The translations under genes were made by a program, and so were the position numbers. Below, one piece after another: positions 1,297-38,346 of a stretch of DNA of 39,046 bases (the stretch's first letter is position 1; each line of letters begins with the position of its first letter). This DNA is from a virus (lineage: Duplodnaviria; Heunggongvirae; Uroviricota; Caudoviricetes). The notes beneath the pieces are model-generated. The model saw nothing but the letters and a program-made list of their open reading frames with translations. It was not told the origin of the DNA and did no database searches. The stretch lies in IMG/VR virus record IMGVR_UViG_2579778894_000027; one strand, 5' to 3'.

Positions 1297-2298
1297 TTAC
1301 CCTCTATTGTCAAAAGGGTTCAATTCAACAGCAGCCTCTAAATGACCTGGAGCAAAATGCGCATAACGCATAGTCATTTTTATATCGCTATGCCCCAGTA
1401 TTTTTTGCAACACAAGAATATTTCCGCCCCGCATCATAAAATGACTGGCAAACGTGTGACGTAGCACATGAGTTAATTGCCCATCAGGAAGCTCGATCTT
1501 CGCTCTCTTAATTGCAGCGTCAAAAGCCTCATAACATGGTGAAAATAGCGCTCCTCGTTTTTTAGGAAGCATAGCTTGCAATTGAGGTGAAATCGGTACA
1601 GTGCGGTTCTTCTTTCCTTTAGTTTTAACAAATGTGATTCGACCGGGCAGTACTTGAGATTGCTTTAATCCTTCTGCTTCACTCCACCGAGCACCAGTCG
1701 CAAGCCCAATACGGACAACAACCCCCAAATCTTTATTCCGTGACTCATCACACGCAATCAGAAGGCGTTCAATCTCATCTACATACAGAAACGCCAGTTC
1801 CTTTTCTTCCTCACGAAACTTGCGAATACCAGTCAGGGGGTTTTCACCAGACCACTCTCCAAGGCGCTTCAGTTCGGCAAAAACAGCATGTAGATATGAC
1901 TGCTCGCGATTAACGGTTGCTTCACTAAGTTTTTTCTTCCCCTTGGGATTCCATTCTCCTGATAGCCTTCTTTCCCGATAAGTAGCAAACATATTTTTGT
2001 CAAACTGAGAAGCAAATGGATCTCCCAGCCTGGAACAAATCGCCTCAAGTTTGACTTTGCGCTCTGCACCAGAGGACAAGGTTTTACCGTACATCTCAAA
2101 CCAACGAGCAATCAACTCAGAAAGACGAGGACCAGAACCATCTTGAAACTCGTCTCCAACTCTACTATTCATTAAACGGCGCTCATAAGAGAGCGCCTCA
2201 CTTTTTGTCGCAAACTGTTTACGAATGCGTTTTCCCGATGCCCCGTAGGGATAACATTCGCAAAGCCATTTACCTGATGGAATCTTACGAACCGACAT
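1297..2298 (-). CDS. int: Tyrosine recombinase (phage integrase)
   Basis: 333 aa; C-terminal catalytic region HVLRHTFASHFMMRGGNILVLQKILGHSDIKMTMRYAHF (R..H..R..Y signature); adjacent to att repeat. Confidence 0.9.
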   Translation of the reverse strand: MSVRKIPSGKWLCECYPYGASGKRIRKQFATKSEALSYERRLMNSRVGDEFQDGSGPRLSELIARWFEMYGKTLSSGAERKVKLEAICSRLGDPFASQFDKNMFATYRERRLSGEWNPKGKKKLSEATVNREQSYLHAVFAELKRLGEWSGENPLTGIRKFREEEKELAFLYVDEIERLLIACDESRNKDLGVVVRIGLATGARWSEAEGLKQSQVLPGRITFVKTKGKKNRTVPISPQLQAMLPKKRGALFSPCYEAFDAAIKRAKIELPDGQLTHVLRHTFASHFMMRGGNILVLQKILGHSDIKMTMRYAHFAPGHLEAAVELNPFDNRG

Positions 2299-2680: not shown

Positions 2681-3331
2681 TTACAAATTAAAAAACGCCC
2701 TAGAAATGACACCGCCTACCAAAACCCCTACGCAGATAAAGAATATTATTTCTTTTGGATAAAGTCGGATTAATTCTGAAGCACGAAGTCGGACTTCTGG
2801 TAAGGTCGAACTCTCTGTGTGGCTTGATGCCGATTGTTGCTCTAACCACGACAATGCAGACTGTAACTGAGAACGAGTAAGATCGTTTAAACGTCCTGTA
2901 CCGAAATTGATATGGCAATACCGCAGAAGTTTTTGTCGAAGTCCACAGTCTTCACTGTTACGTAGTAATAAACTTACAAGAGCCTTACAGGCATCATGAT
3001 CTTTACATCGCTCAAGCATTGCATGCAGAAAACTCTCCGCTGTTTTATATTGATTTACTGTCATATCATCAATACCAGCTACACCAATCTCCGCATGTAC
3101 TTTTTGCCAAATAATAAACGCTTCAGTATTGCTAGCTTCTGCAATAGCAGCAACCAAGCTATTTAGCTCCTTACGCTGAGCCTTAAGCAAAGGGCGATCG
3201 TCATCATCATTATTCGAAGGGATTGCGATATTGACGGTATGAGAACCATCATATCGCTCTATCTGAATATTCTTTTCGTGAAAATCACGCCCAGCAACGC
3301 GATTGTTTGAACCGTTTGAGTTGACGGCCAT
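2681..3331 (-). CDS. Tail-anchored membrane protein of unknown function (accessory gene in repressor-int operon)
   Basis: 216 aa, hydrophilic N-terminal domain and single C-terminal hydrophobic helix IIFFICVGVLVGGVISRAFF; strong SD gggaggtg 5 nt upstream of ATG; N-terminus shares a motif with the C-terminus of the upstream HTH protein. Confidence 0.6.
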   Translation of the reverse strand: MAVNSNGSNNRVAGRDFHEKNIQIERYDGSHTVNIAIPSNNDDDDRPLLKAQRKELNSLVAAIAEASNTEAFIIWQKVHAEIGVAGIDDMTVNQYKTAESFLHAMLERCKDHDACKALVSLLLRNSEDCGLRQKLLRYCHINFGTGRLNDLTRSQLQSALSWLEQQSASSHTESSTLPEVRLRASELIRLYPKEIIFFICVGVLVGGVISRAFFNL

Positions 3332-6278: not shown

Positions 6279-7204
6279 GCACCATCAACCACCAGAAGCT
6301 ACGCGAACTGGCATTTGCCCTGCAACGAATGGCAACGCCTCAAAAATTACTGGCATTTCGCGCAATGCTCTCGCCGTCTGCTGTGCTGGCACTGCTGGAT
6401 GAGCTGGAGCACGCCAGAACCACGGCTCCTGCCATTCGCCTCACGCTCCATCATGAAATCGCTGATTTCTGCGCGACGTTGGAGGCGCCGGGCGAACCGG
6501 AAACGCCGGAAGCAATACAGCAAGAGCTGCTGCAACGCATTGACAAGGTTTTTGATTTTTTTTCTGAACCAGTAAGAAACCAGAACATGCACACACAAAA
6601 AAACCGCTTGCCATGCCTCAATCGGTCAGGTTACATTTCCGCTGCACCTCATAAAACGGGTGCCGGGATTCTCAACCCGATACAGAGCAAAGCGCATAAC
6701 CGCGCAAGCGGTTTTTTTGTGCGTACTGTATTGCCACGTCTTTTTCGCGTCAGAATTATGGCGGGGCGTACGGGGCCGACTTCGGTCGGGCCGGATTCTT
6801 TGCTCTCCGGTGTTGAGAACCCTGTACGTCTCGCCACCCCGAGATTCTCAACTCTGGATGGTGAGTTATTTCTATCACCGAGCAAAGAGGCCACACCATG
6901 GCAGACCGCAAACAGCACCGCGCTATCGCGGAGCGTCGTCACATCCAGACTGAAATCAACCGCAGACTTTCCCGCGCATCACGCGTCGCGCAAATCATGC
7001 ACATCAATATGCTGCATGAGCGCAGCCACGCACTATCAAACATTTATTCCGCCTCTGTTTTCAGCTATCTGGCGGATGATCTGCACGAGCTTCAACAGCT
7101 CATCCAGCAGCAAAACAAACTCCATTAATTCCTGTTCCGGGCCTTTCCTGCACCTTGCGGCGGGAGGCCTTCGCACATCTGTAACAAGAGGATTGCCGCA
7201 ATGA
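6275..7204 (+). CDS. Early-region ORF; only the N-terminal ~100 aa look protein-like, probable frameshifted/over-extended ORF
   Basis: Frame is open to 7204 but composition after about 6575 is Ser/Cys-rich junk and overlaps a better ORF (6898-7128); a T8 tract at 6556-6563 sits where +/-1 nt would give a stop within 1-5 codons. Confidence 0.3.
   Translation: MSTINHQKLRELAFALQRMATPQKLLAFRAMLSPSAVLALLDELEHARTTAPAIRLTLHHEIADFCATLEAPGEPETPEAIQQELLQRIDKVFDFFSEPVRNQNMHTQKNRLPCLNRSGYISAAPHKTGAGILNPIQSKAHNRASGFFVRTVLPRLFRVRIMAGRTGPTSVGPDSLLSGVENPVRLATPRFSTLDGELFLSPSKEATPWQTANSTALSRSVVTSRLKSTADFPAHHASRKSCTSICCMSAATHYQTFIPPLFSAIWRMICTSFNSSSSSKTNSINSCSGPFLHLAAGGLRTSVTRGLPQ
6898..7128 (+). CDS. Hypothetical small early protein
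   Basis: 76 aa, charged/helical composition, SD agagg upstream of ATG. Confidence 0.45.
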   Translation: MADRKQHRAIAERRHIQTEINRRLSRASRVAQIMHINMLHERSHALSNIYSASVFSYLADDLHELQQLIQQQNKLH

Positions 7205-7572: not shown

Positions 7573-10395
7573 ATGACGGCAGAGTATATCAGGGACTGGC
7601 AACAACCGCGCCACGCAGTGGGGCGTGAAGGAACGGAGATCCCCGCTCCTGAATCCGCGCTTTCCTCCTGGCTGGATGCCTACCGGGTAGAGAACGAACG
7701 CCGCCAGGAAATGGCTGATGCGGCGTTCTCCGCCACGCCGCTGGGCAACCTGATTAATAAAAGCCTGGACGCACAGGAAAAACAGGACAAAACCATCACA
7801 CTGGCAGGAGACGCCAGAAAACAGGCACGTGGCGCGGTGGATGAAGCCATGGCCTCACTGCGCCTGCTGCCGTCCTATCTGCGCGATCCGCTTATTCGCC
7901 ACCTCTCCTTCCTGCGCAAAAAACAGGAAGCCGATCGCCGGAAAGGCAAAAAGAGCTGGCAGGCTGAACGCTACGCGTGCGGAACCCTGCGCAAAATATT
8001 CGAACGTCTGGACCGCACCGACCACCGCTGGCTGACACCGGGTTATCGCTCCCTTGCCGGACGCGAACGCCTGGATGATTTGCTTTACCTGCCGCAGCTC
8101 AACAAACACCAGATACAGACGCTGGCCACCATGACGGCGGCGATGTTCAGCAGCACCTTCGAAAAACTCTGCGATGGCTTTGGCGCGACTGATGGCGAGC
8201 TGACCATGGATGTAACGCTGAAGGCTTATCAGATGCTGGCCCGCATGGCGTTACACCTGCACGCCATGCCTCCACATTATGACGCACTGACAACAGACAA
8301 AGACCGGAGGAACGAACCGGACACGGAGCTGCTGCCGGGCGCAATCCTTCGCCTGACCTGTGCGGAATGGTGGAAACGCAAACTGTGGCTGTTACGTTGT
8401 GAGTGGCGGGAAGAACAACTCCGCGCCGCCTGTCTGGTTTCCAGAAAAACATCCCCCTATCTGAGCCAGGACGCGTTAAGCGAGTTTCGCGCACAGCGCG
8501 AGAAAACGCGCGATTTCCTGAAAAGTTTCATGCTGGAAAATGAAGACGGGTTCACGATTGATCTCGAGACGGTGTATTACGCGGGAGTAAGTAACCCGGT
8601 TCACCGTAAGGCAGAAATGATGGCCACCATGAAGGGACTGGAACTTCTGGCCGAAGCCCGTGGCGACAGAGCGGTGTTTCTGACCGTCACCTGCCCGTCA
8701 AAATACCACGCAACAACGGAGAACGGTCATCCGAACCCCAAATGGAACGGGGCCACCATGCGCGACTCCAGCGATTACCTGGTTAACACGTTTTTTGCGG
8801 CGGTCCGCAAAAAACTGAACCGCGACGGCCTGCGCTGGTATGGCATCCGCACGGTGGAGCCTCACCATGACGGCACTGTGCACTGGCATATGATGGTCTT
8901 TGCACATCCGGACGAGATTGAAACCATCGTGTCCCACGTCTGCGATATTGCCATTCAGGAGGACCGCCACGAGCTGGGCGATGACATAACTCCGCGTTTT
9001 AAGGCGGAGTATGTCGACGGCTCAAAAGGCACACCAACCAGCTACATCGCCACCTACATCGGAAAGAACCTGGACAGCCGCGCCGTGGATGGCATCGACC
9101 CGAAAACGGGCAAGCCACGCGTTGACCACGAAACAGGTAAATCAATGGCCGAGAGCGTGGAGCGCGCCATCGGCTGGGCGCGCCTTCACCGGGTCCGTCA
9201 GTTCCAGTTCTTTGGCATCCCCTCCCGTCAGGTGTGGCGTGAACTGCGCCGCCTTGCCAGCCAGATGGCACGCAATCCGGAAGGCCCGCAACGGCTGAAA
9301 GATGATGCAATGGATGCGGTACTCGCTGCCGCCGATGCCGGGTGTTTTGCCACCTACATTGAAAAACAGGGTGGCGTGCTTGTTCCACGCAAGGACTACC
9401 TGATTCGCACCGCCTACGACCTCGCAGATGAGCTGAACGATTACGGCGAACAGAGCGTACAGATTTACGGGATCTGGTCACCACTCATCGGGGAATCCTC
9501 CCGTGTGTGCACGTATCCGGATAACTGGAAGCTGGTAAGACGTAAACCAGAACCGGAAGACAACGCCCACGAAAATGGTTTTGACCTTCAGGGCGGCCCT
9601 GCCGCCCCTTGGACTCGTGGCAATAACTGTCCCCGTGTACAGGAAACAGGCAACAACGGGACAGAACAGCCGGAAGAACGGCCAGCACCGTGGCCGCAGC
9701 TTCCTGACGGCGTTGAAGTAAATGAATGGATGCGCTCACTGAAACGGCACGAACGCCGGGCGCTGATGCGTTCGCTTCGTGACAAACAGGCAAAAAACAG
9801 CAGCGATGAAATGCAGAACTGGACACAGAGCCGCAAACAGCAGCGGCCTTTGCCTGATAACCACGAGTTACTCGCTAAAGAATGGCGGGAGTCTGCTGAA
9901 TCTCTCGGCCTGCATATCGGTGAACAACAGATGCAGCACCTGTTACGGGGCGGCAGTCTGTACGTTGACGGCAGCATCATTGCACCGCAGGGATTTGAAA
10001 TTGTACGCAAACCGGATACCCGCCCGGACAGCCGAATCACGCAGCTCTGGCAGCGTCTGAGCCGTAATCATGGCGTAAGCAGCACGGAGATCCGCCATAA
10101 CCCGGTCGCCAGCTATCTGGCACAGCTGGGGGCATCAGACCCTGAAGCCGCCGCACGCCTGGCATCCACACTTCAGCAGGACCAGAACACCATGAAAACA
10201 CCCGTTACCGTGCTTTCTGACATGCTGCGCGCCATCCGCGACGCAGAGCACGCACAGAGAATCAGTGAAACCACTGAACGCGCCAGCCGCAAAGCAGACC
10301 TGCTGCGGGGTGGCCTGACCAGTGGAAACAAAAAACAGACAGAAACGGGACTCACGAATCCCGTAAATGAGCAAAAAACGCGCAGCGATATATGA
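7573..10395 (+). CDS. Replication initiation endonuclease (P2 gpA-like rolling-circle Rep) with long C-terminal extension
   Basis: 940 aa; HUH-type motif GTVHWHMMVFAH and double-tyrosine motif TPTSYIATYIGKN; position between early genes and packaging genes as in P2. Confidence 0.85.
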   Translation: MTAEYIRDWQQPRHAVGREGTEIPAPESALSSWLDAYRVENERRQEMADAAFSATPLGNLINKSLDAQEKQDKTITLAGDARKQARGAVDEAMASLRLLPSYLRDPLIRHLSFLRKKQEADRRKGKKSWQAERYACGTLRKIFERLDRTDHRWLTPGYRSLAGRERLDDLLYLPQLNKHQIQTLATMTAAMFSSTFEKLCDGFGATDGELTMDVTLKAYQMLARMALHLHAMPPHYDALTTDKDRRNEPDTELLPGAILRLTCAEWWKRKLWLLRCEWREEQLRAACLVSRKTSPYLSQDALSEFRAQREKTRDFLKSFMLENEDGFTIDLETVYYAGVSNPVHRKAEMMATMKGLELLAEARGDRAVFLTVTCPSKYHATTENGHPNPKWNGATMRDSSDYLVNTFFAAVRKKLNRDGLRWYGIRTVEPHHDGTVHWHMMVFAHPDEIETIVSHVCDIAIQEDRHELGDDITPRFKAEYVDGSKGTPTSYIATYIGKNLDSRAVDGIDPKTGKPRVDHETGKSMAESVERAIGWARLHRVRQFQFFGIPSRQVWRELRRLASQMARNPEGPQRLKDDAMDAVLAAADAGCFATYIEKQGGVLVPRKDYLIRTAYDLADELNDYGEQSVQIYGIWSPLIGESSRVCTYPDNWKLVRRKPEPEDNAHENGFDLQGGPAAPWTRGNNCPRVQETGNNGTEQPEERPAPWPQLPDGVEVNEWMRSLKRHERRALMRSLRDKQAKNSSDEMQNWTQSRKQQRPLPDNHELLAKEWRESAESLGLHIGEQQMQHLLRGGSLYVDGSIIAPQGFEIVRKPDTRPDSRITQLWQRLSRNHGVSSTEIRHNPVASYLAQLGASDPEAAARLASTLQQDQNTMKTPVTVLSDMLRAIRDAEHAQRISETTERASRKADLLRGGLTSGNKKQTETGLTNPVNEQKTRSDI

Positions 10396-10471: not shown

Positions 10472-11431
10472 ATGAAAATTTACATCGACGACGGCTCCAC
10501 CAACATCAAGCTGGCATGGACTGAGAACGGCGAACGCCGCAACGCCATCAGCCCGAACAGCTTCAAGTCGGAATGGTCTGCGCCGTTCGGTGGCTCGCAG
10601 CCTGCTAACTACATGCTTGATGGCGTGCGCTATGGTTTTGATCCGGTCAGCGATCGCTTTGTCCAGACGACCGACACGCAATACCAGTACAGCGATGTGA
10701 ATGTCATTGCCATTCATCACGCGCTGGTCAAATCAGACATCACGCCACAGGAAGTGGATGTGGTTGTTACCCTGCCACTGAGCGAATATTTCGACACAAA
10801 CGCACAGCCGGACATGGCCAACATCAACCGCAAAAAAGCGAACGTCATGCGCCCGGTGGAGTACCAGAACGGCGAAGCATTCACTATCCGTAACGTACGG
10901 GTTATGCCTGAATCCATTCCGGCTGGCTTTAAAGCACTGGCTGACATGAGTCCGTTTGAATCCCTGCTGATTGTGGATTTGGGCGGAACCACGCTGGATG
11001 TGGCAAAGGTTCAGGGGCAACTGGCAGGTATCAGCCAGGTGTTTTGCGATCCACACGTAGGCGTTTCTCTTATGGCCGATGCCGTACTGTCGGTGATGGC
11101 CACTAACGGTATGCGCACCAGTCACCACATCGCCAATACCATTATCGAACATCGCCATAATGAAGCCTGGCTGCGCCAGCACATCCACAATGACGCGCAT
11201 TACGCCAGCCTGATGGCGGTTATTCGTGAAAAGGAAGAAACACTGAAACAACGCGTGATCCGCGCGCTGGCGGTTTTTTCGGGTTACGGGCGGGTGATGG
11301 TTGTCGGTGGCGGGGCGGAGATTGTGGCACCCGCTATCCGCGAAGCCTGCGGAGTTAATGCGACTTTCATCGCGGACGGGGTGCCACAGTTTGCTCTGGT
11401 TAATGGGCTGTACGCAATGGACAAGGAGTAA
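10472..11431 (+). CDS. parM: ParM/StbA-like actin-type segregation ATPase
   Basis: N-terminus MKIYIDDGSTNIKLAW...ISPNSFK...YQYSDVNVIAIHHAL...IVDLGGTTLD closely parallels plasmid R1 ParM (VFIDDGSTNIKLQW...SPNSF...WQYSDVNVVAVHHAL) as recalled. Confidence 0.85.
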   Translation: MKIYIDDGSTNIKLAWTENGERRNAISPNSFKSEWSAPFGGSQPANYMLDGVRYGFDPVSDRFVQTTDTQYQYSDVNVIAIHHALVKSDITPQEVDVVVTLPLSEYFDTNAQPDMANINRKKANVMRPVEYQNGEAFTIRNVRVMPESIPAGFKALADMSPFESLLIVDLGGTTLDVAKVQGQLAGISQVFCDPHVGVSLMADAVLSVMATNGMRTSHHIANTIIEHRHNEAWLRQHIHNDAHYASLMAVIREKEETLKQRVIRALAVFSGYGRVMVVGGGAEIVAPAIREACGVNATFIADGVPQFALVNGLYAMDKE

Positions 11432-11435
11432 ACCA

Positions 11436-11747
11436 ATGACGACACCAACCAGACGGATAAGTTTCTATCTGAAGCCCGCCGCCGTCAAGAACGAAGGAGA
11501 AGCATGCGCCTGGCTGGACAGCCTTACACCAGAAGCCCGCAAAAGCGGCCAACGCGTGGCTTTTCTGGCCGGGCTGGCACTTCTGAAGACGAATCCGGCA
11601 GAGGCTTACCGACTGGCCGCATGGGCTGATGATGAGATGTTACCTGTGACACAAATCAGCTCAAAAAAGTTTGAAGCACAGTCTGCACCAGTGGCTAAGA
11701 TAACCAGCCAGATGGCTGGGAATATCCGGGCGTTATTTCCTGAGTAA
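11436..11747 (+). CDS. parR: ParR/StbB-like centromere-binding adaptor
   Basis: 103 aa; RRISFYLKPAAVKNEGEACAWLDSLTPEARKSGQRVAFLAGLALLKTNP...RALFPE parallels R1 ParR; AAGGAG SD 7 nt upstream; immediately downstream of parM. Confidence 0.75.
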   Translation: MTTPTRRISFYLKPAAVKNEGEACAWLDSLTPEARKSGQRVAFLAGLALLKTNPAEAYRLAAWADDEMLPVTQISSKKFEAQSAPVAKITSQMAGNIRALFPE

Positions 11748-11875
11748 AAGCATCTGCGCGAAAAATGCTCACGTTTATAGAGACAGTATCATTCCATTTG
11801 GCACACTTACTTCAATAATCGATCTGTTAAACAAATAGATTGTCTATTATCTATCGATTAAAACGATCAATTATC

Positions 11876-11903
11876 TTGACAGTAATGTGCCTTTTTGTAA
11901 GAT
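11876..11903 (+). promoter_or_regulatory. Sigma70-like promoter (ttgaca-N16-taagat)
   Basis: Perfect -35 ttgaca at 11876-11881 and -10-like taagat at 11898-11903; flanked by imperfect inverted repeats caattatcttgac / gacaagataattg. Confidence 0.45.
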
Positions 11904-11909
11904 CGTTCG

Positions 11910-12096
11910 CATTGTGAGCGACAAGATAATTGCGCGGCATTGTCCATGCAAAACGCCCCAATAGCAGCAACTATTGGGGCGTAAAACTCGGTCGGACTCA
12001 CTTAACCTGATATGCGTGCCTTCCGAAGTAAATCAAAATGTGCGTCGTATATTTTATTGCTTACACGCACCTCTGTAAAGGCACGCATATTTTTCC
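11910..12096 (+). ncRNA. Candidate structured leader or small RNA ending in an intrinsic terminator
   Basis: Downstream of promoter: GC-rich hairpin cgccccaatag-cagcaa-ctattggggcg (11954-11981), then 13-bp perfect inverted repeat atatgcgtgcctt (12010-12022) / aaggcacgcatat (12078-12090) followed by TTTTT; 3' end abuts SD of the 89-aa ORF. Confidence 0.3.
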
Positions 12097-12111
12097 TATG
12101 AGGTAAATAAA

Positions 12112-12381
12112 GTGCGGGCTAAAACAGGTATTTGCAAGAACCCTCATCGTTATAATCCAACATTTCTGTCTCTCCCTGAATATCAAGGACAAGAAGGTCG
12201 GCACAAATGCGCTGCCTGTGCTTTTGAGCTAGGCATAAAAGATGCGCTTGAAGGACGCGCTATGGCTCAGAATGATTTAGTTTTAGCTAACATTCCGTTT
12301 AGCCAGGCTGGAACTGTAAGGCACAGAGATGCCTATGAAGCATATGTTCGTGGTTGGCGATTAATAAACAGCAACAATTGA
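12112..12381 (+). CDS. Hypothetical 89-aa protein (GTG start), accessory
   Basis: ORF with SD gagg 8 nt upstream of GTG; followed by terminator; contains CKNPH...HKCAACAFE Cys/His cluster. Confidence 0.45.
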   Translation: MRAKTGICKNPHRYNPTFLSLPEYQGQEGRHKCAACAFELGIKDALEGRAMAQNDLVLANIPFSQAGTVRHRDAYEAYVRGWRLINSNN

Positions 12382-12391
12382 TACTTTTGAA

Positions 12392-12417
12392 GCGCCGATA
12401 AGGCGCTTTTTTTGTTT
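12392..12417 (+). terminator. Rho-independent terminator
   Basis: gcgcc-gataa-ggcgc hairpin followed by TTTTTTT. Confidence 0.6.
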
Positions 12418-12867
12418 GCACGATAGTGCACAAGTTTGCACAATTTTTTTGAACGACTTTTTGTACTTCCGGCCCGCGTGGTGGCTGGATCCGTCAAGGA
12501 TCCGTACGTGCACAAAAAAACGCGTTTTTTCTGCGCGCAGGTGACGGGGGAACAGCCCGCGTTTCAGGGGGTAAATAGCATTCCCTGAACGATGTCGCAG
12601 AGATAGAACAGAATGGCTGTATTTCTCACGCTGAGCGTGAAAAAGACGTGAGGGCTTTTGATTTGATGGGGTGAAAGGTAAGGCCGTCAAAATCGCACTG
12701 AGACGGCGAGAACATGCAGTCAACGCGGTGGGATTGCGTAAGAGTCTGACTGTCGATGATGGCAATCAGCAGGAAAGCATCGTGAAATTATCTGACTGAT
12801 ACAGGAGCTGGAGAGTCGGGGCATAAATTTTTTATGCCCCGGCGAAGCAGCAGACAAGCGAAGCGCG

Positions 12868-13914
12868 TCAGGATGTGGGCTGGGTGTCTAACAGTGCGTA
12901 AGGGTTAAAGCGGATCACCTCTTCGCCAAGCCAGTCATTGATGTGCTTCATGGCCTCCATGACGGGCATCAGCTCGTTAATTGCGTAAACCCGCGCGGCC
13001 TTCTCCACATCACCAAACGCACTTTTTTCGCCCGGCATCGCCCCCATCAGTTGCGGCGGAACGCGGTGCGCAGCCAGCACATCATCACGGGATGCCGCCT
13101 TAACATTCATGAACTCATCCTTTGCGGTGATCTGCTGGAACGGCAAAATTTGCACCCCTTCTTTGCCCCCGTTGGGCGCATGAATGAGCACGTTTTTAAA
13201 TGCACCACCACCACGCGCACCCTGTAACGTTTCTTTCAGGGAGTCCATGCTTTCGCGGTTTACCTGCGCTGCACCGATGTAGATGATGCACCCGGCGTGG
13301 GATCCGTTGTCGTAATACAGTTTTCTGAACATGTCCGCCGAATGAGAAAGGCTGGCCGAGAGTAATGCGCCAAGATATTCCGGCATGCCGTAGATTTCCT
13401 GGTTAATATCCGGATTCATCAGGTGGCACACTTTGCCAGGGCGAAACTGGAACGCGTCCTTGCCATCCTGCACATACCACCATGATTCAAGATCGCTTCC
13501 GCGTCGCATGTATTTCGCCAGGGCGTGCCGTAATTTAAGCGGTTCGCCGAGCATATTGCTCCGAAGCTCAAGGAATGCGTTACCGAACACAAACCAGTCC
13601 AGCGCCAGCGCCGAGAAATCCTGCCGGGAAAGCAGCGGGTGCGGGATGTAGCACCCGAGCAATACATTACGCTTAAAGTAAAGCGCAGACTGATGCCAGG
13701 ACGTTTGCCGGGCGGCTCTTGCCAGACCGTACCAGTCCACCGGGGTTTCATACCACCGCCCGTTATCAGCACAGTACATATTGTCCAGCAGGTCATGCCC
13801 GGTCAGGCGATAAGGACCATCAAATGTGAATGCACTGAGCGATGATTCTTTCCTGAGCGCATCAGCGAGATCAATGCGTGAACTCATGCGCACTTTTTTA
13901 TTTTTTCTGCTCAT
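12868..13914 (-). CDS. Portal protein (P2 gpQ-like)
   Basis: 348 aa, size and position match P2 Q; ATGA-coupled to terminase large subunit. Confidence 0.8.
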   Translation of the reverse strand: MSRKNKKVRMSSRIDLADALRKESSLSAFTFDGPYRLTGHDLLDNMYCADNGRWYETPVDWYGLARAARQTSWHQSALYFKRNVLLGCYIPHPLLSRQDFSALALDWFVFGNAFLELRSNMLGEPLKLRHALAKYMRRGSDLESWWYVQDGKDAFQFRPGKVCHLMNPDINQEIYGMPEYLGALLSASLSHSADMFRKLYYDNGSHAGCIIYIGAAQVNRESMDSLKETLQGARGGGAFKNVLIHAPNGGKEGVQILPFQQITAKDEFMNVKAASRDDVLAAHRVPPQLMGAMPGEKSAFGDVEKAARVYAINELMPVMEAMKHINDWLGEEVIRFNPYALLDTQPTS

Positions 13915-26419: not shown

Positions 26420-26997
26420 TGACATTCAGAATGAGTGAACAATCACGGACCATAAAAATTTATAATCTACTGACCGGAACCAATGAGTTTATTGGTGAAG
26501 GTGATGCATACATTCCACCTCATACAGGTCTGCCTGCAAACAGTACCGATATTGCCCCGCCAGATATTCCGGCTGGCTTCGTGGCCGTTTTCAACAGTGA
26601 TGAGGCATCGTGGCATCTCGTTGAAGACCATCGGGGTAAAACGGTTTATGACGTGGCATCAGGGGACTCGTTATTTATTTCTGAACTCGGTCCATTACCG
26701 GAAAATGTTACCTGGTTGTCGCCGTATGGAGAGTATCAGAAGTGGAACGGCACATCCTGGGTGAAAGATGCAGAAGCAGAAAAACTGTTTCGGATAAGGG
26801 AGGCGGAAGAAACAAAAAACAGCCTGATGCAGGTAGCCAGCGAGCATATTGCGCCACTTCAGGATGCCGTAGATTTGGATATTGCAACGGAGGAAGAGGC
26901 ATCGTTACTGGCTGCATGGAAGACATACCGGGTATTGTTGAATCGTGTTAATACAGCGGTAGCAGCGGATGTTGAGTGGCCAGTCGCCCCACAATAA
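26419..26997 (+). CDS. Tail fibre assembly chaperone G
   Basis: 192 aa; ATGA-coupled to H. Confidence 0.75.
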
Positions 26998-38000: not shown

Positions 38001-38098
38001 CACGACACTGCTTATTGCTTTGATTTTATTCTTATCTTTCCCATGGTACCCGGAGCGGGACTTGAACCCGCACAGCGCGAACGCCGAGGGATTTTAAA
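37992..38098. repeat. attR: 107-bp direct repeat identical to 1084-1190, overlapping the intact tRNA-Leu 3' end
   Basis: Identical sequence by eye to left copy; spans part of terminator hairpin and the 3' 55 nt of the tRNA. Confidence 0.85.
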
Positions 38099-38130
38099 TC
38101 CCTTGTGTCTACCGATTCCACCATCCGGGC
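38044..38130 (-). tRNA. leuZ: tRNA-Leu (anticodon UAA)
   Basis: Minus-strand sequence GCCCGGATGGTGGAATCGGTAGACACAAGGGATTTAAAATCCC...GGGTTCAAGTCCCGCTCCGGGTACCA, 87 nt with long variable arm and encoded CCA. Confidence 0.9.
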
Positions 38131-38142
38131 TCGGGAAGAAAG

Positions 38143-38216
38143 TGGAGGCGCGTTCCGGAGTCGAACCGGACTAGACGGATTTGCAATCCGCTACATAACC
38201 GCTTTGTTAACGCGCC
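38143..38216 (-). tRNA. cysT: tRNA-Cys (anticodon GCA)
   Basis: Minus-strand GGCGCGTTAACAAAGCGGTTATGTAGCGGATTGCAAATCCGTCTAGTCCGGTTCGACTCCGGAACGCGCCTCCA. Confidence 0.9.
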
Positions 38217-38270
38217 AAATTCTTCAGGCCTTTCAGCCAGACATCCGCTTGACGCCGATGTCTTTTAAAC

Positions 38271-38346
<76 letters not shown>

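Follow-up and report, generated by a model that had tools for sequence, protein, structure and literature searches.

The stretch of DNA analysed here (IMG/VR record IMGVR_UViG_2579778894_000027; 39,046 nucleotides, below called the window) is an Escherichia coli P2-like prophage of the Xuanwuvirus (P88) type. Between the stop codon of the partition gene parR and the conserved cos-proximal region it carries a cargo (moron) cassette, 11748..12415, which as a whole has no strand. The cassette holds a gene for an 89-residue protein, X. As a sequence-only reading of this DNA had recognised, the region stands alone as a unit: a genuine small protein gene is preceded by a long structured leader and has a promoter and a terminator of its own. 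To this we add a second promoter, which lies on the minus strand within the leader and from which a small RNA antisense to the leader is predicted to arise. The boundaries of the cassette, both promoters, the terminator, the covariation and strand of the RNA and the conservation of X were shown in silico. We think it probable that the cassette is an autonomous prophage moron with convergent promoters in which X is under antisense control, in a layout like that of a type I toxin-antitoxin locus.

The cassette and its sense transcription unit

The ends of the cassette were found by comparison with the Citrobacter phage Shae_phiSM, which keeps parMR and the cos-proximal sequence and has an oppositely oriented memP in place of the cassette. 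Homology to Shae_phiSM stops at the parR stop codon and restarts at ~12416; thus 11748-12415 is one exchangeable cargo cassette. In all, 80 viral loci encoding relatives of X were recovered, and ~45 related phage loci were compared (single loci are given as L numbers).

The sense promoter, P_X, reads TTGACA-16-TAAGAT (11876..11903, plus strand) and matches the consensus at 10 of 12 positions, in keeping with the near-consensus promoter proposed before. Transcription would start near 11910. A counterpart with 8-10 of 12 matches is present at the same alignment position in every lineage. Since promoter-like sites were no commoner in 2 kb of the window than in shuffled sequence (2 found, 2.6 expected), the weight of the promoter calls rests on conservation. 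Promoter, hairpin and open reading frame (ORF) keep the same relative positions 5' of homologues in other phages that are 46-63% identical. Every element listed by the sequence-only reading is present, to within 1-3 nt.

From this start the mRNA of X would have a structured 5' untranslated region (UTR) of ~201 nt (11910..12111, plus strand), marked as such by its fold and by its conservation across lineages. The folding check proposed for the leader came out in favour of structure: it folds at -68.9 kcal/mol (z = -3.85), and none of 200 shuffled sequences did as well. With fixed spacing, the sense promoter, a GC-rich hairpin, an A-rich linker and the motif TGTAAA(G) recur 5' of the 46-63%-identical homologues. 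In the window the hairpin has perfect 12-bp arms (11953-11964 and 11971-11982) and a 6-nt loop. Its stem sequence differs between lineages, and TGTAAA(G), ~30 nt 5' of the start codon, is invariant. A leader peptide or a hidden small hydrophobic toxin was considered and rejected, since neither strand of the leader has a conserved small ORF.

The Shine-Dalgarno (SD) sequence GAGG (12100-12103) is followed after 8 nt by the GTG start codon at 12112 of the X ORF (12112-12381, plus strand), which encodes a member of a conserved protein family. The predicted folds of the different lineages leave the SD region unpaired with a mean probability of 0.29-0.56. The mRNA has an intrinsic terminator of its own (12389..12419, plus strand), with an 8-bp stem that includes 5 GC pairs, a 5-nt loop (stem 12389-12409) and a T-run behind it (TTTTGTTT). 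Terminator-like sites were enriched in the scan, with 8 found and 2.4 expected.

Between the GC-rich hairpin and the SD sequence the window has, as had been noticed, a perfect 13-bp inverted repeat (12010..12094, plus strand), whose arms (12010-12022 and 12078-12090) lie 55 nt apart and which runs into TTTTT at 12090-12094. On this helix the claim of a discrete plus-strand RNA of ~190 nt was built, a trans-acting small RNA (sRNA) or an attenuator that would end at 12010-12094 and allow conditional read-through into X. The helix is kept in both the minimum-free-energy and the centroid folds, it stands directly before UUUUU and then the SD sequence, and antisense pairing to its 5' arm could in principle act as an anti-terminator. 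However, a loop of 55 nt is far beyond that of normal intrinsic terminators and exceeds the size accepted by the terminator scan, which made no call at 12010-12094. Nor did the structure hold up when its conservation was checked. Only the E. coli lineage has the 13-bp repeat, which is missing even from the nearest one (L046-L050), and in no other lineage does a helix with a U-run lie 5' of the SD sequence. What recurs there is a small SD-containing hairpin, which is not a terminator, together with a 5'-terminal hairpin and varied upstream pairings of the UGUAAAG segment. The GC-rich hairpin, too, lacks a T-run on the plus strand. Because the terminator before the ORF is neither conserved nor called, the plus-strand reading is weak; the comparison gave no support for an RNA that ends at 12094, and we regard such an RNA as quite improbable.

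The convergent promoter and the predicted antisense RNA

The antisense promoter, P_as (12051..12079, minus strand), consists of the -35 box TTTACA (12079-12074), a 17-bp spacer and the -10 box TAAAAT (12056-12051). Situated within the leader, it shares sequence with the 3' arm of the 13-bp repeat, and it is one of only two promoter-like sites picked up by the scan of 2 kb of the window. The invariant TGTAAA of the leader is the reverse complement of its -35 box. On the minus strand of ~40 homologous leaders the arrangement TTTACA-17-TAnnnT is found with diverged spacers; the exceptions are a -10 box CAcaaT in L084 and L088 and an 18-bp spacing in L092. Among 16 non-redundant representatives the -35 box carries 1.94 bits of information per position and the -10 box 1.7 (T1), 2.0 (A2) and 2.0 (T6) bits, whereas the spacer has only 0.55 and the flanks have 0.4-0.6. 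Conservation of the boxes over a diverged spacer and diverged flanks is the signature of a selected sigma-70 promoter.

From P_as a cis-antisense sRNA of ~95 nt is predicted (11948..12044, minus strand), which would consist of a 5' tail, stem-loop 1 and a terminator; its two ends are placed from the promoter and the terminator. It would be fully complementary to the leader from nucleotide +38 to +135. Of the two arms of the 13-bp helix, the 5' one falls inside this target (~11948-12044) and the 3' one overlaps the antisense -35 box. The antisense RNA of the window folds at -35.6 kcal/mol (z = -3.3). Across lineages the predicted RNAs are 70-110 nt long, share the 5' tail, one stem-loop and the terminator, and have fold z values of -1.1 to -6.2.

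The terminator of this RNA is the GC-rich hairpin (11953..11982), read on the minus strand with the tail UUUUGCAUGG. The same hairpin had been taken for a part of a plus-strand RNA. The plus strand has no T-run after it, and pyrimidine- or T-rich tails are found on the minus strand only: UUUUGC in the window, UUUCCCUUAU in others and U6-U7 in L084, L088 and L092. The suggestion that an antitoxin-like RNA controls a small effector thus pointed in the right direction, but the regulatory RNA would sit on the minus strand.

A covariance model built from the single lineage L067-L083 found the lineages L047-L050, Providencia, L059-L066 and Salmonella, and all full-length matches were on the minus strand at the expected place. 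In the resulting alignment (A8) 94.8% of the cells are paired, compared with 70.9% in shuffled alignments and 37-60% when the partners are slid. Compensatory double changes occur in 16 of the 22 pairs, and the covariation score of 0.523 (compared with 0.172) is reached by none of 500 shuffles. The alignment contains 38 G·U pairs on the minus strand, as against no more than 3 A·C cells, which would pair as G·U on the plus strand. This asymmetry favours the minus-strand transcript as the molecule that folds. A second covariance model, built from the resulting alignment of the other lineages, scores 29.9 bits (E = 3.7e-5) against the minus strand of the window at 11946-12002. The covariance-model-guided alignment was used because RNAalifold on a MAFFT alignment of the antisense RNAs was mis-aligned and gave only a partial terminator.

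Rfam 15 has no match at the gathering threshold in 11700-12450, where the best scores are 19-22 bits against cut-offs of 43-80, and no Rfam family overlaps the leader in 17 homologous loci. The weak matches, to sar, ctRNA_pGA1 and Spot 42, lie on the minus strand over the terminator hairpin; they are matches of generic terminator hairpins. As predicted here, the cis-antisense sRNA is a previously undescribed family that is absent from Rfam.

Protein X and its relatives

X is a basic, hydrophilic protein (pI 9.2, GRAVY -0.57) without a transmembrane segment; its maximum in a 19-residue Kyte-Doolittle window is 0.58. It matches PHROG 3941 (E = 9e-49), which has no known function there. There was no match in Pfam and none among the PADLOC-DB 2.0 families at E <= 1, and no papers came up for the protein accession, the PHROG number or DUF6996. 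The family comprises 173 representatives at 50% clustering in an exhaustive HMMER search, and a profile search gave 1323 clusters, all labelled 'hypothetical'. Its alignment has the invariant residues C8, H12, R30, G41, Q65, R70 and H71 and the near-invariant residues H31, C33 and C36. It includes a CHCC set, which is probably a zinc site, and a two-repeat unit with two Q-x4-RH motifs. In silico, X is thus seen to be a real, conserved protein, and its family is a new Cys/His-rich domain family absent from Pfam.

The confident AlphaFold2 model of X (mean pLDDT 92, pTM 0.85) has a four-helix, short-strand fold. It had no neighbour in a structure search of the PDB, and the family profile had 0 hits among PDB sequences. 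Ribosome modulation factor (RMF, PF04957) recurred below threshold: it was matched by 15 of 50 family members (best E = 0.0074), hhalign gave a probability of 6.6% over 15 columns, and the top PDB match in Foldseek was RMF with E = 1.5. Membership of X in this family was not borne out by these matches, which provide a lead only. Neither X nor 50 relatives matched a helix-turn-helix family in Pfam, and there was no match to C proteins.

Outside these phages, relatives of X occur in Bacteroidota as stand-alone or N-terminal domains inside DpnII-type (GATC) restriction-modification operons; others are in operons of a D12 methyltransferase and a DUF6996/6997/7226 protein. Further relatives are fused to HNH_2, NOV_C, DndB, HEPN or WYL domains. 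A few relatives on plasmids adjoin toxin-antitoxin (YoeB/YefM), TIR-domain or macro-domain genes; these copies are in accessory regions, and a plasmid leading-region (anti-restriction) context was not seen. Together, the operon, fusion and plasmid contexts suggest a nucleic-acid-directed role in genetic-conflict systems. X may be a reader or binder of nucleic acid, perhaps one directed to GATC sites. In one 279-residue fusion from Bacteroidales the C-terminal extension was compared with an extra 178-residue ORF in another DpnII operon, and no homology was found.

Small stand-alone genes in DpnII/Dam-type operons recall the accessory and controller parts of type II restriction-modification systems, among which are the C proteins and the antisense RNAs of EcoRI-type systems. 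X differs from these in having no helix-turn-helix and no C-protein match, and the copies in restriction-modification operons have no antisense leader.

The layout of the phage locus raises the question whether X is a toxin and the antisense RNA its antitoxin, in a true type I toxin-antitoxin or abortive-infection module that stabilises the prophage or kills infected cells. The paradigm of such loci is hok/sok, and loci with soluble toxins are represented by SymE/SymR and RalR/RalA. Like them, the cassette would have a cis-encoded antisense sRNA of ~70-100 nt made of a 5' tail, one recognition stem-loop and a terminator; it has a long, highly folded mRNA leader whose SD sequence may be partly sequestered, and it is located in a prophage or mobile element. 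The antisense RNA over the mRNA is supported in silico by promoter, terminator, covariation, G·U pairs and model match, and its convergent arrangement fits. So do the moron or defence slots occupied in several phage types (the P2 A-Q hotspot, the position after cI and the gap between Q and the holin gene) and the YoeB/YefM, TIR-domain and macro-domain neighbours of the plasmid homologues. The protein fits less well. Canonical type I toxins are small (usually <60 residues), hydrophobic and membrane-active, whereas X has 89 residues and is hydrophilic, and where known toxins are a membrane peptide, an AbrB-fold protein or a DNase, X belongs to a new Cys/His-rich family. The target of the antisense RNA, ~55-165 nt 5' of the start codon, leaves the ribosome-binding site uncovered, unlike in type I loci, to which the cassette has no sequence or Rfam relationship. 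The lack of a PADLOC match also speaks against a toxin, and it would be odd for a toxin that the relatives in restriction-modification operons and on plasmids have no antisense partner. Finally, no sign of counter-selection was seen. Membership in the type I toxin-antitoxin systems is therefore not established, and we consider it on balance doubtful that X is a toxin held in check by its antisense RNA.

As to counter-selection, apparent pseudogenes of X were considered as a hint of toxicity and rejected. In Escherichia phage 503458 (L095, NC_049341.1) single-base deletions in homopolymers are scattered over coding and non-coding sequence, also outside the ORF; they look like sequencing errors, which produce false frameshifts in parR and X. 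In L094 (NZ_CP027447.1) the ORF is intact, with a single N86H change, and yet unannotated. The ORF is missing from the annotation of some PGAP/RefSeq E. coli genomes, and identical DNA carries the annotation in other RefSeq E. coli genomes.

Proposed antisense control and the distribution of the cassette

In the mechanism that we consider probable, P_X would give rise to an mRNA of ~510 nt composed of the 201-nt folded leader, X and the terminator, while P_as would direct the non-coding antisense RNA of ~95 nt that ends at the hairpin 11982-11953. By pairing with the central part of the leader, to which the 5' arm of the 13-bp helix belongs, the antisense RNA would hold X synthesis low in the lysogen, and X would be made only once sense transcription exceeds the antisense RNA. 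Repression could occur in several ways: the duplex may trigger cleavage or decay, the part of the leader beside the ribosome-binding site may refold, or transcription from the two promoters, which are ~170 bp apart, may interfere.

Several points weigh against this interpretation. When the antisense target is blocked in silico, the accessibility of the SD sequence falls slightly in seven lineages (in the window from 0.56 to 0.46) and is unchanged in three; since blocking barely alters it, no single route of repression is favoured. In the lineage of the window the antisense terminator has a short U-tract (UUUU then G). Pairing in the covariation alignment is favoured by the fitting of this alignment to the structure of the model, and covariation alone leaves a possible role for the complementary hairpins in the sense leader. 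In addition, the antisense motif is absent from more distant homologues (~40% identity), namely those on plasmids, in L100, in L012, in Vibrio and in restriction-modification operons. Because these lack the motif, antisense control would be limited to one gammaproteobacterial phage clade.

A further explanation is that the conserved motifs act mainly on the DNA, either as a Dam (GATC) methylation switch or as operators of a regulator, possibly X itself, so that the antisense RNA would be incidental. The leaders of most lineages are enriched 3- to 5-fold in GATC (P = 0.0015-0.07 each). All lineages with a conserved leader have a GATC ~6-7 bp 5' of the sense -35 box, and L084, L088 and L092 have none; in about six lineages a GATC lies beside the antisense -35 box and in many also at the antisense start. 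The window has three GATC sites within 84 bp around P_X (11821-11824, 11865-11868 and 11901-11904), the last of which overlaps the -10 box (TAAGATC). P_X is moreover flanked by inverted repeats. Upstream of it, at 11816..11860 (no strand), lies the 8-bp repeat TAATCGAT / ATCGATTA, in a stretch whose conservation with L046-L050 (~90%) exceeds that of the proteins (63% identity). A perfect 11-bp repeat, CAATTATCTTG / CAAGATAATTG (11868-11878 and 11922-11932, no strand), brackets P_X, with one arm overlapping the -35 box and the other at about +12 to +22. By chance, ~0.02 repeats of this kind would be expected in the region; this one is not conserved in L046-L050. The occurrence of bacterial relatives in DpnII (GATC) operons would fit as well. 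On the other hand, two helices have compensatory double changes and the G·U pairs are asymmetric between the strands, both of which indicate that selection acts on RNA structure. The leader of the window itself, with 2 GATC in 260 nt (P = 0.25), shows no significant enrichment, and P_as of the window has no GATC. We therefore think it unlikely that DNA-level action is the main function. This explanation is compatible with antisense control of X and does not exclude it.

Read on the minus strand, the 11-bp repeat would give a second hairpin followed by TTTT.

IS10 offers a precedent for such a combination: it has the promoters pIN and pOUT, the antisense RNA-OUT and a Dam site in a -10 box. Like IS10, the cassette has close convergent sense and antisense promoters, a predicted stable stem-loop antisense RNA and a GATC over the sense -10 box (11901-11904 in the window). 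Unlike IS10, it has no transposase, its antisense RNA would leave the ribosome-binding site uncovered, and its sensitivity to Dam is hypothetical. The GATC positions and the DpnII/Dam context of the relatives suggest methylation-sensitive expression or a GATC-related activity as a hypothesis. A more specific proposal would be that X is a new type of small zinc-dependent reader of the state of the DNA, e. g. of GATC methylation, expressed from a Dam-gated antisense switch that is similar to a type I toxin-antitoxin locus and would act in superinfection exclusion or anti-restriction. This proposal is speculative and has little likelihood in our view. If it were true, the domain would serve DpnII/Dam-type restriction-modification systems as a sensor or controller that has so far been overlooked, and in the HNH, PD-(D/E)xK-like, HEPN and DndB fusions it would be the part that recognises DNA. 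Temperate phages of Enterobacterales would then have captured it as a stand-alone effector, together with Dam-sensitive convergent promoters and a dedicated antisense RNA.

Another precedent is phage P22, in which sieB/esc is reportedly controlled through the sas antisense RNA. In both cases an accessory gene expressed from the prophage (in P22 an exclusion gene) and located in the neighbourhood of the immunity region would have its translation under a small cis-antisense RNA. The proteins are unrelated, however, and sas, through which one of two translation starts is chosen, is located within the coding sequence, whereas the antisense RNA described here would lie wholly in the 5' UTR.

Two uncatalogued families, the predicted antisense sRNA and the X domain, travel together in P2-like, lambdoid and P22-like prophages, and the connection of the phage copies with the DpnII/Dam-type operons and the nuclease fusions provides a testable handle on the function of the domain. 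Should X prove to be a toxic or defensive effector gated by the antisense RNA, it would be a soluble, nucleic-acid-directed addition to the few type I-like systems whose effector is not a membrane protein.

The cassette with leader and antisense promoter is found in the P2 A-Q hotspot in the window, L049 and L050. Providencia-type lambdoid prophages (L004, L054) have it on the opposite strand, in the gap from Q to the holin gene; in L075 it adjoins umuDC-like genes, and in the Salmonella P22-like phage BIS08P22 (L093) it stands directly 3' of cI. The st313-td gene of phage BTP1 is a defence gene and was later named bstA. BTP1 has st313-td in the slot after cI (PMC5322425). The insertion slots of the cassette are classical moron or defence positions that are expressed in lysogens. 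L100, with its more distant X homologue and no antisense motif, likewise occupies the P2 A-Q hotspot.

Among 5426 complete E. coli genomes, 167 (~3%), O157:H7 strains included, carry the 801-nt stretch around the cassette, on the chromosome every time. In 166 of these genomes its identity is at least 95%. The variation within E. coli is too little for testing pairing.

In BIS08P22 an annotated 'hypothetical protein' (L093 2165-2401) overlaps the promoter, the leader and the antisense-terminator region of the cassette; it is probably a spurious ORF and not a gene. This ORF and the missing annotation of X in some RefSeq genomes are corrected by the present analysis. In L053, L056 and L057 a hairpin between an A-run and a T-run lies directly 5' of the sense promoter (~2220-2291, minus strand). 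It gave a weak extra match of the RNA covariance model, looks like a bidirectional terminator and probably insulates the cassette in the Providencia-type phages. The closest non-E. coli lineage has, in the same P2 hotspot, a conserved 95-residue ORF (MTDIKRSDLFYDDY...) after X (L049 2833-3120 and L050 2839-3126, plus strand) that is not present in the window. On one viral contig (L068) the Rfam family sRNA-Xcc1 is matched at gathering level ~1 kb downstream of the X homologue (2804-2893, minus strand).

In the window, the cassette is preceded on the plus strand by the replication gene A (7573-10395), parM (10472-11431) and parR/stbB (11436-11747), and followed by the cos region, the portal gene (12868-13914, minus strand) and the terminase gene. 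The gene A protein has 940 residues, of which only 179-503 are covered by the Phage_GPA domain; the long C-terminal half is uncharacterised. Beginning 77 nt from gene A, 10472-11747 is a complete ParM/ParR (StbA/StbB) type II partition pair in an integrated prophage, for which no obvious centromere was identified in the window. The AT-rich repeats at 11800-11875 are unlikely to be a parC centromere; as Shae_phiSM has parMR without them, they belong to the cassette and not to par.

Elsewhere in the prophage, adjoining Rfam matches at gathering level to isrK (6644-6718) and C4 antisense RNA (6754-6841) on the plus strand form a P1/P7-type c4-like immunity RNA module in this P2-like prophage (6644-6841). 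A strong full-length match to Rfam IS009 RNA (192 bits) lies at 26762-26960 on the plus strand, in the expected late/tail region. Three tRNA genes in a row (38047-38346, minus strand) probably mark the chromosomal side of the prophage or the attachment site.

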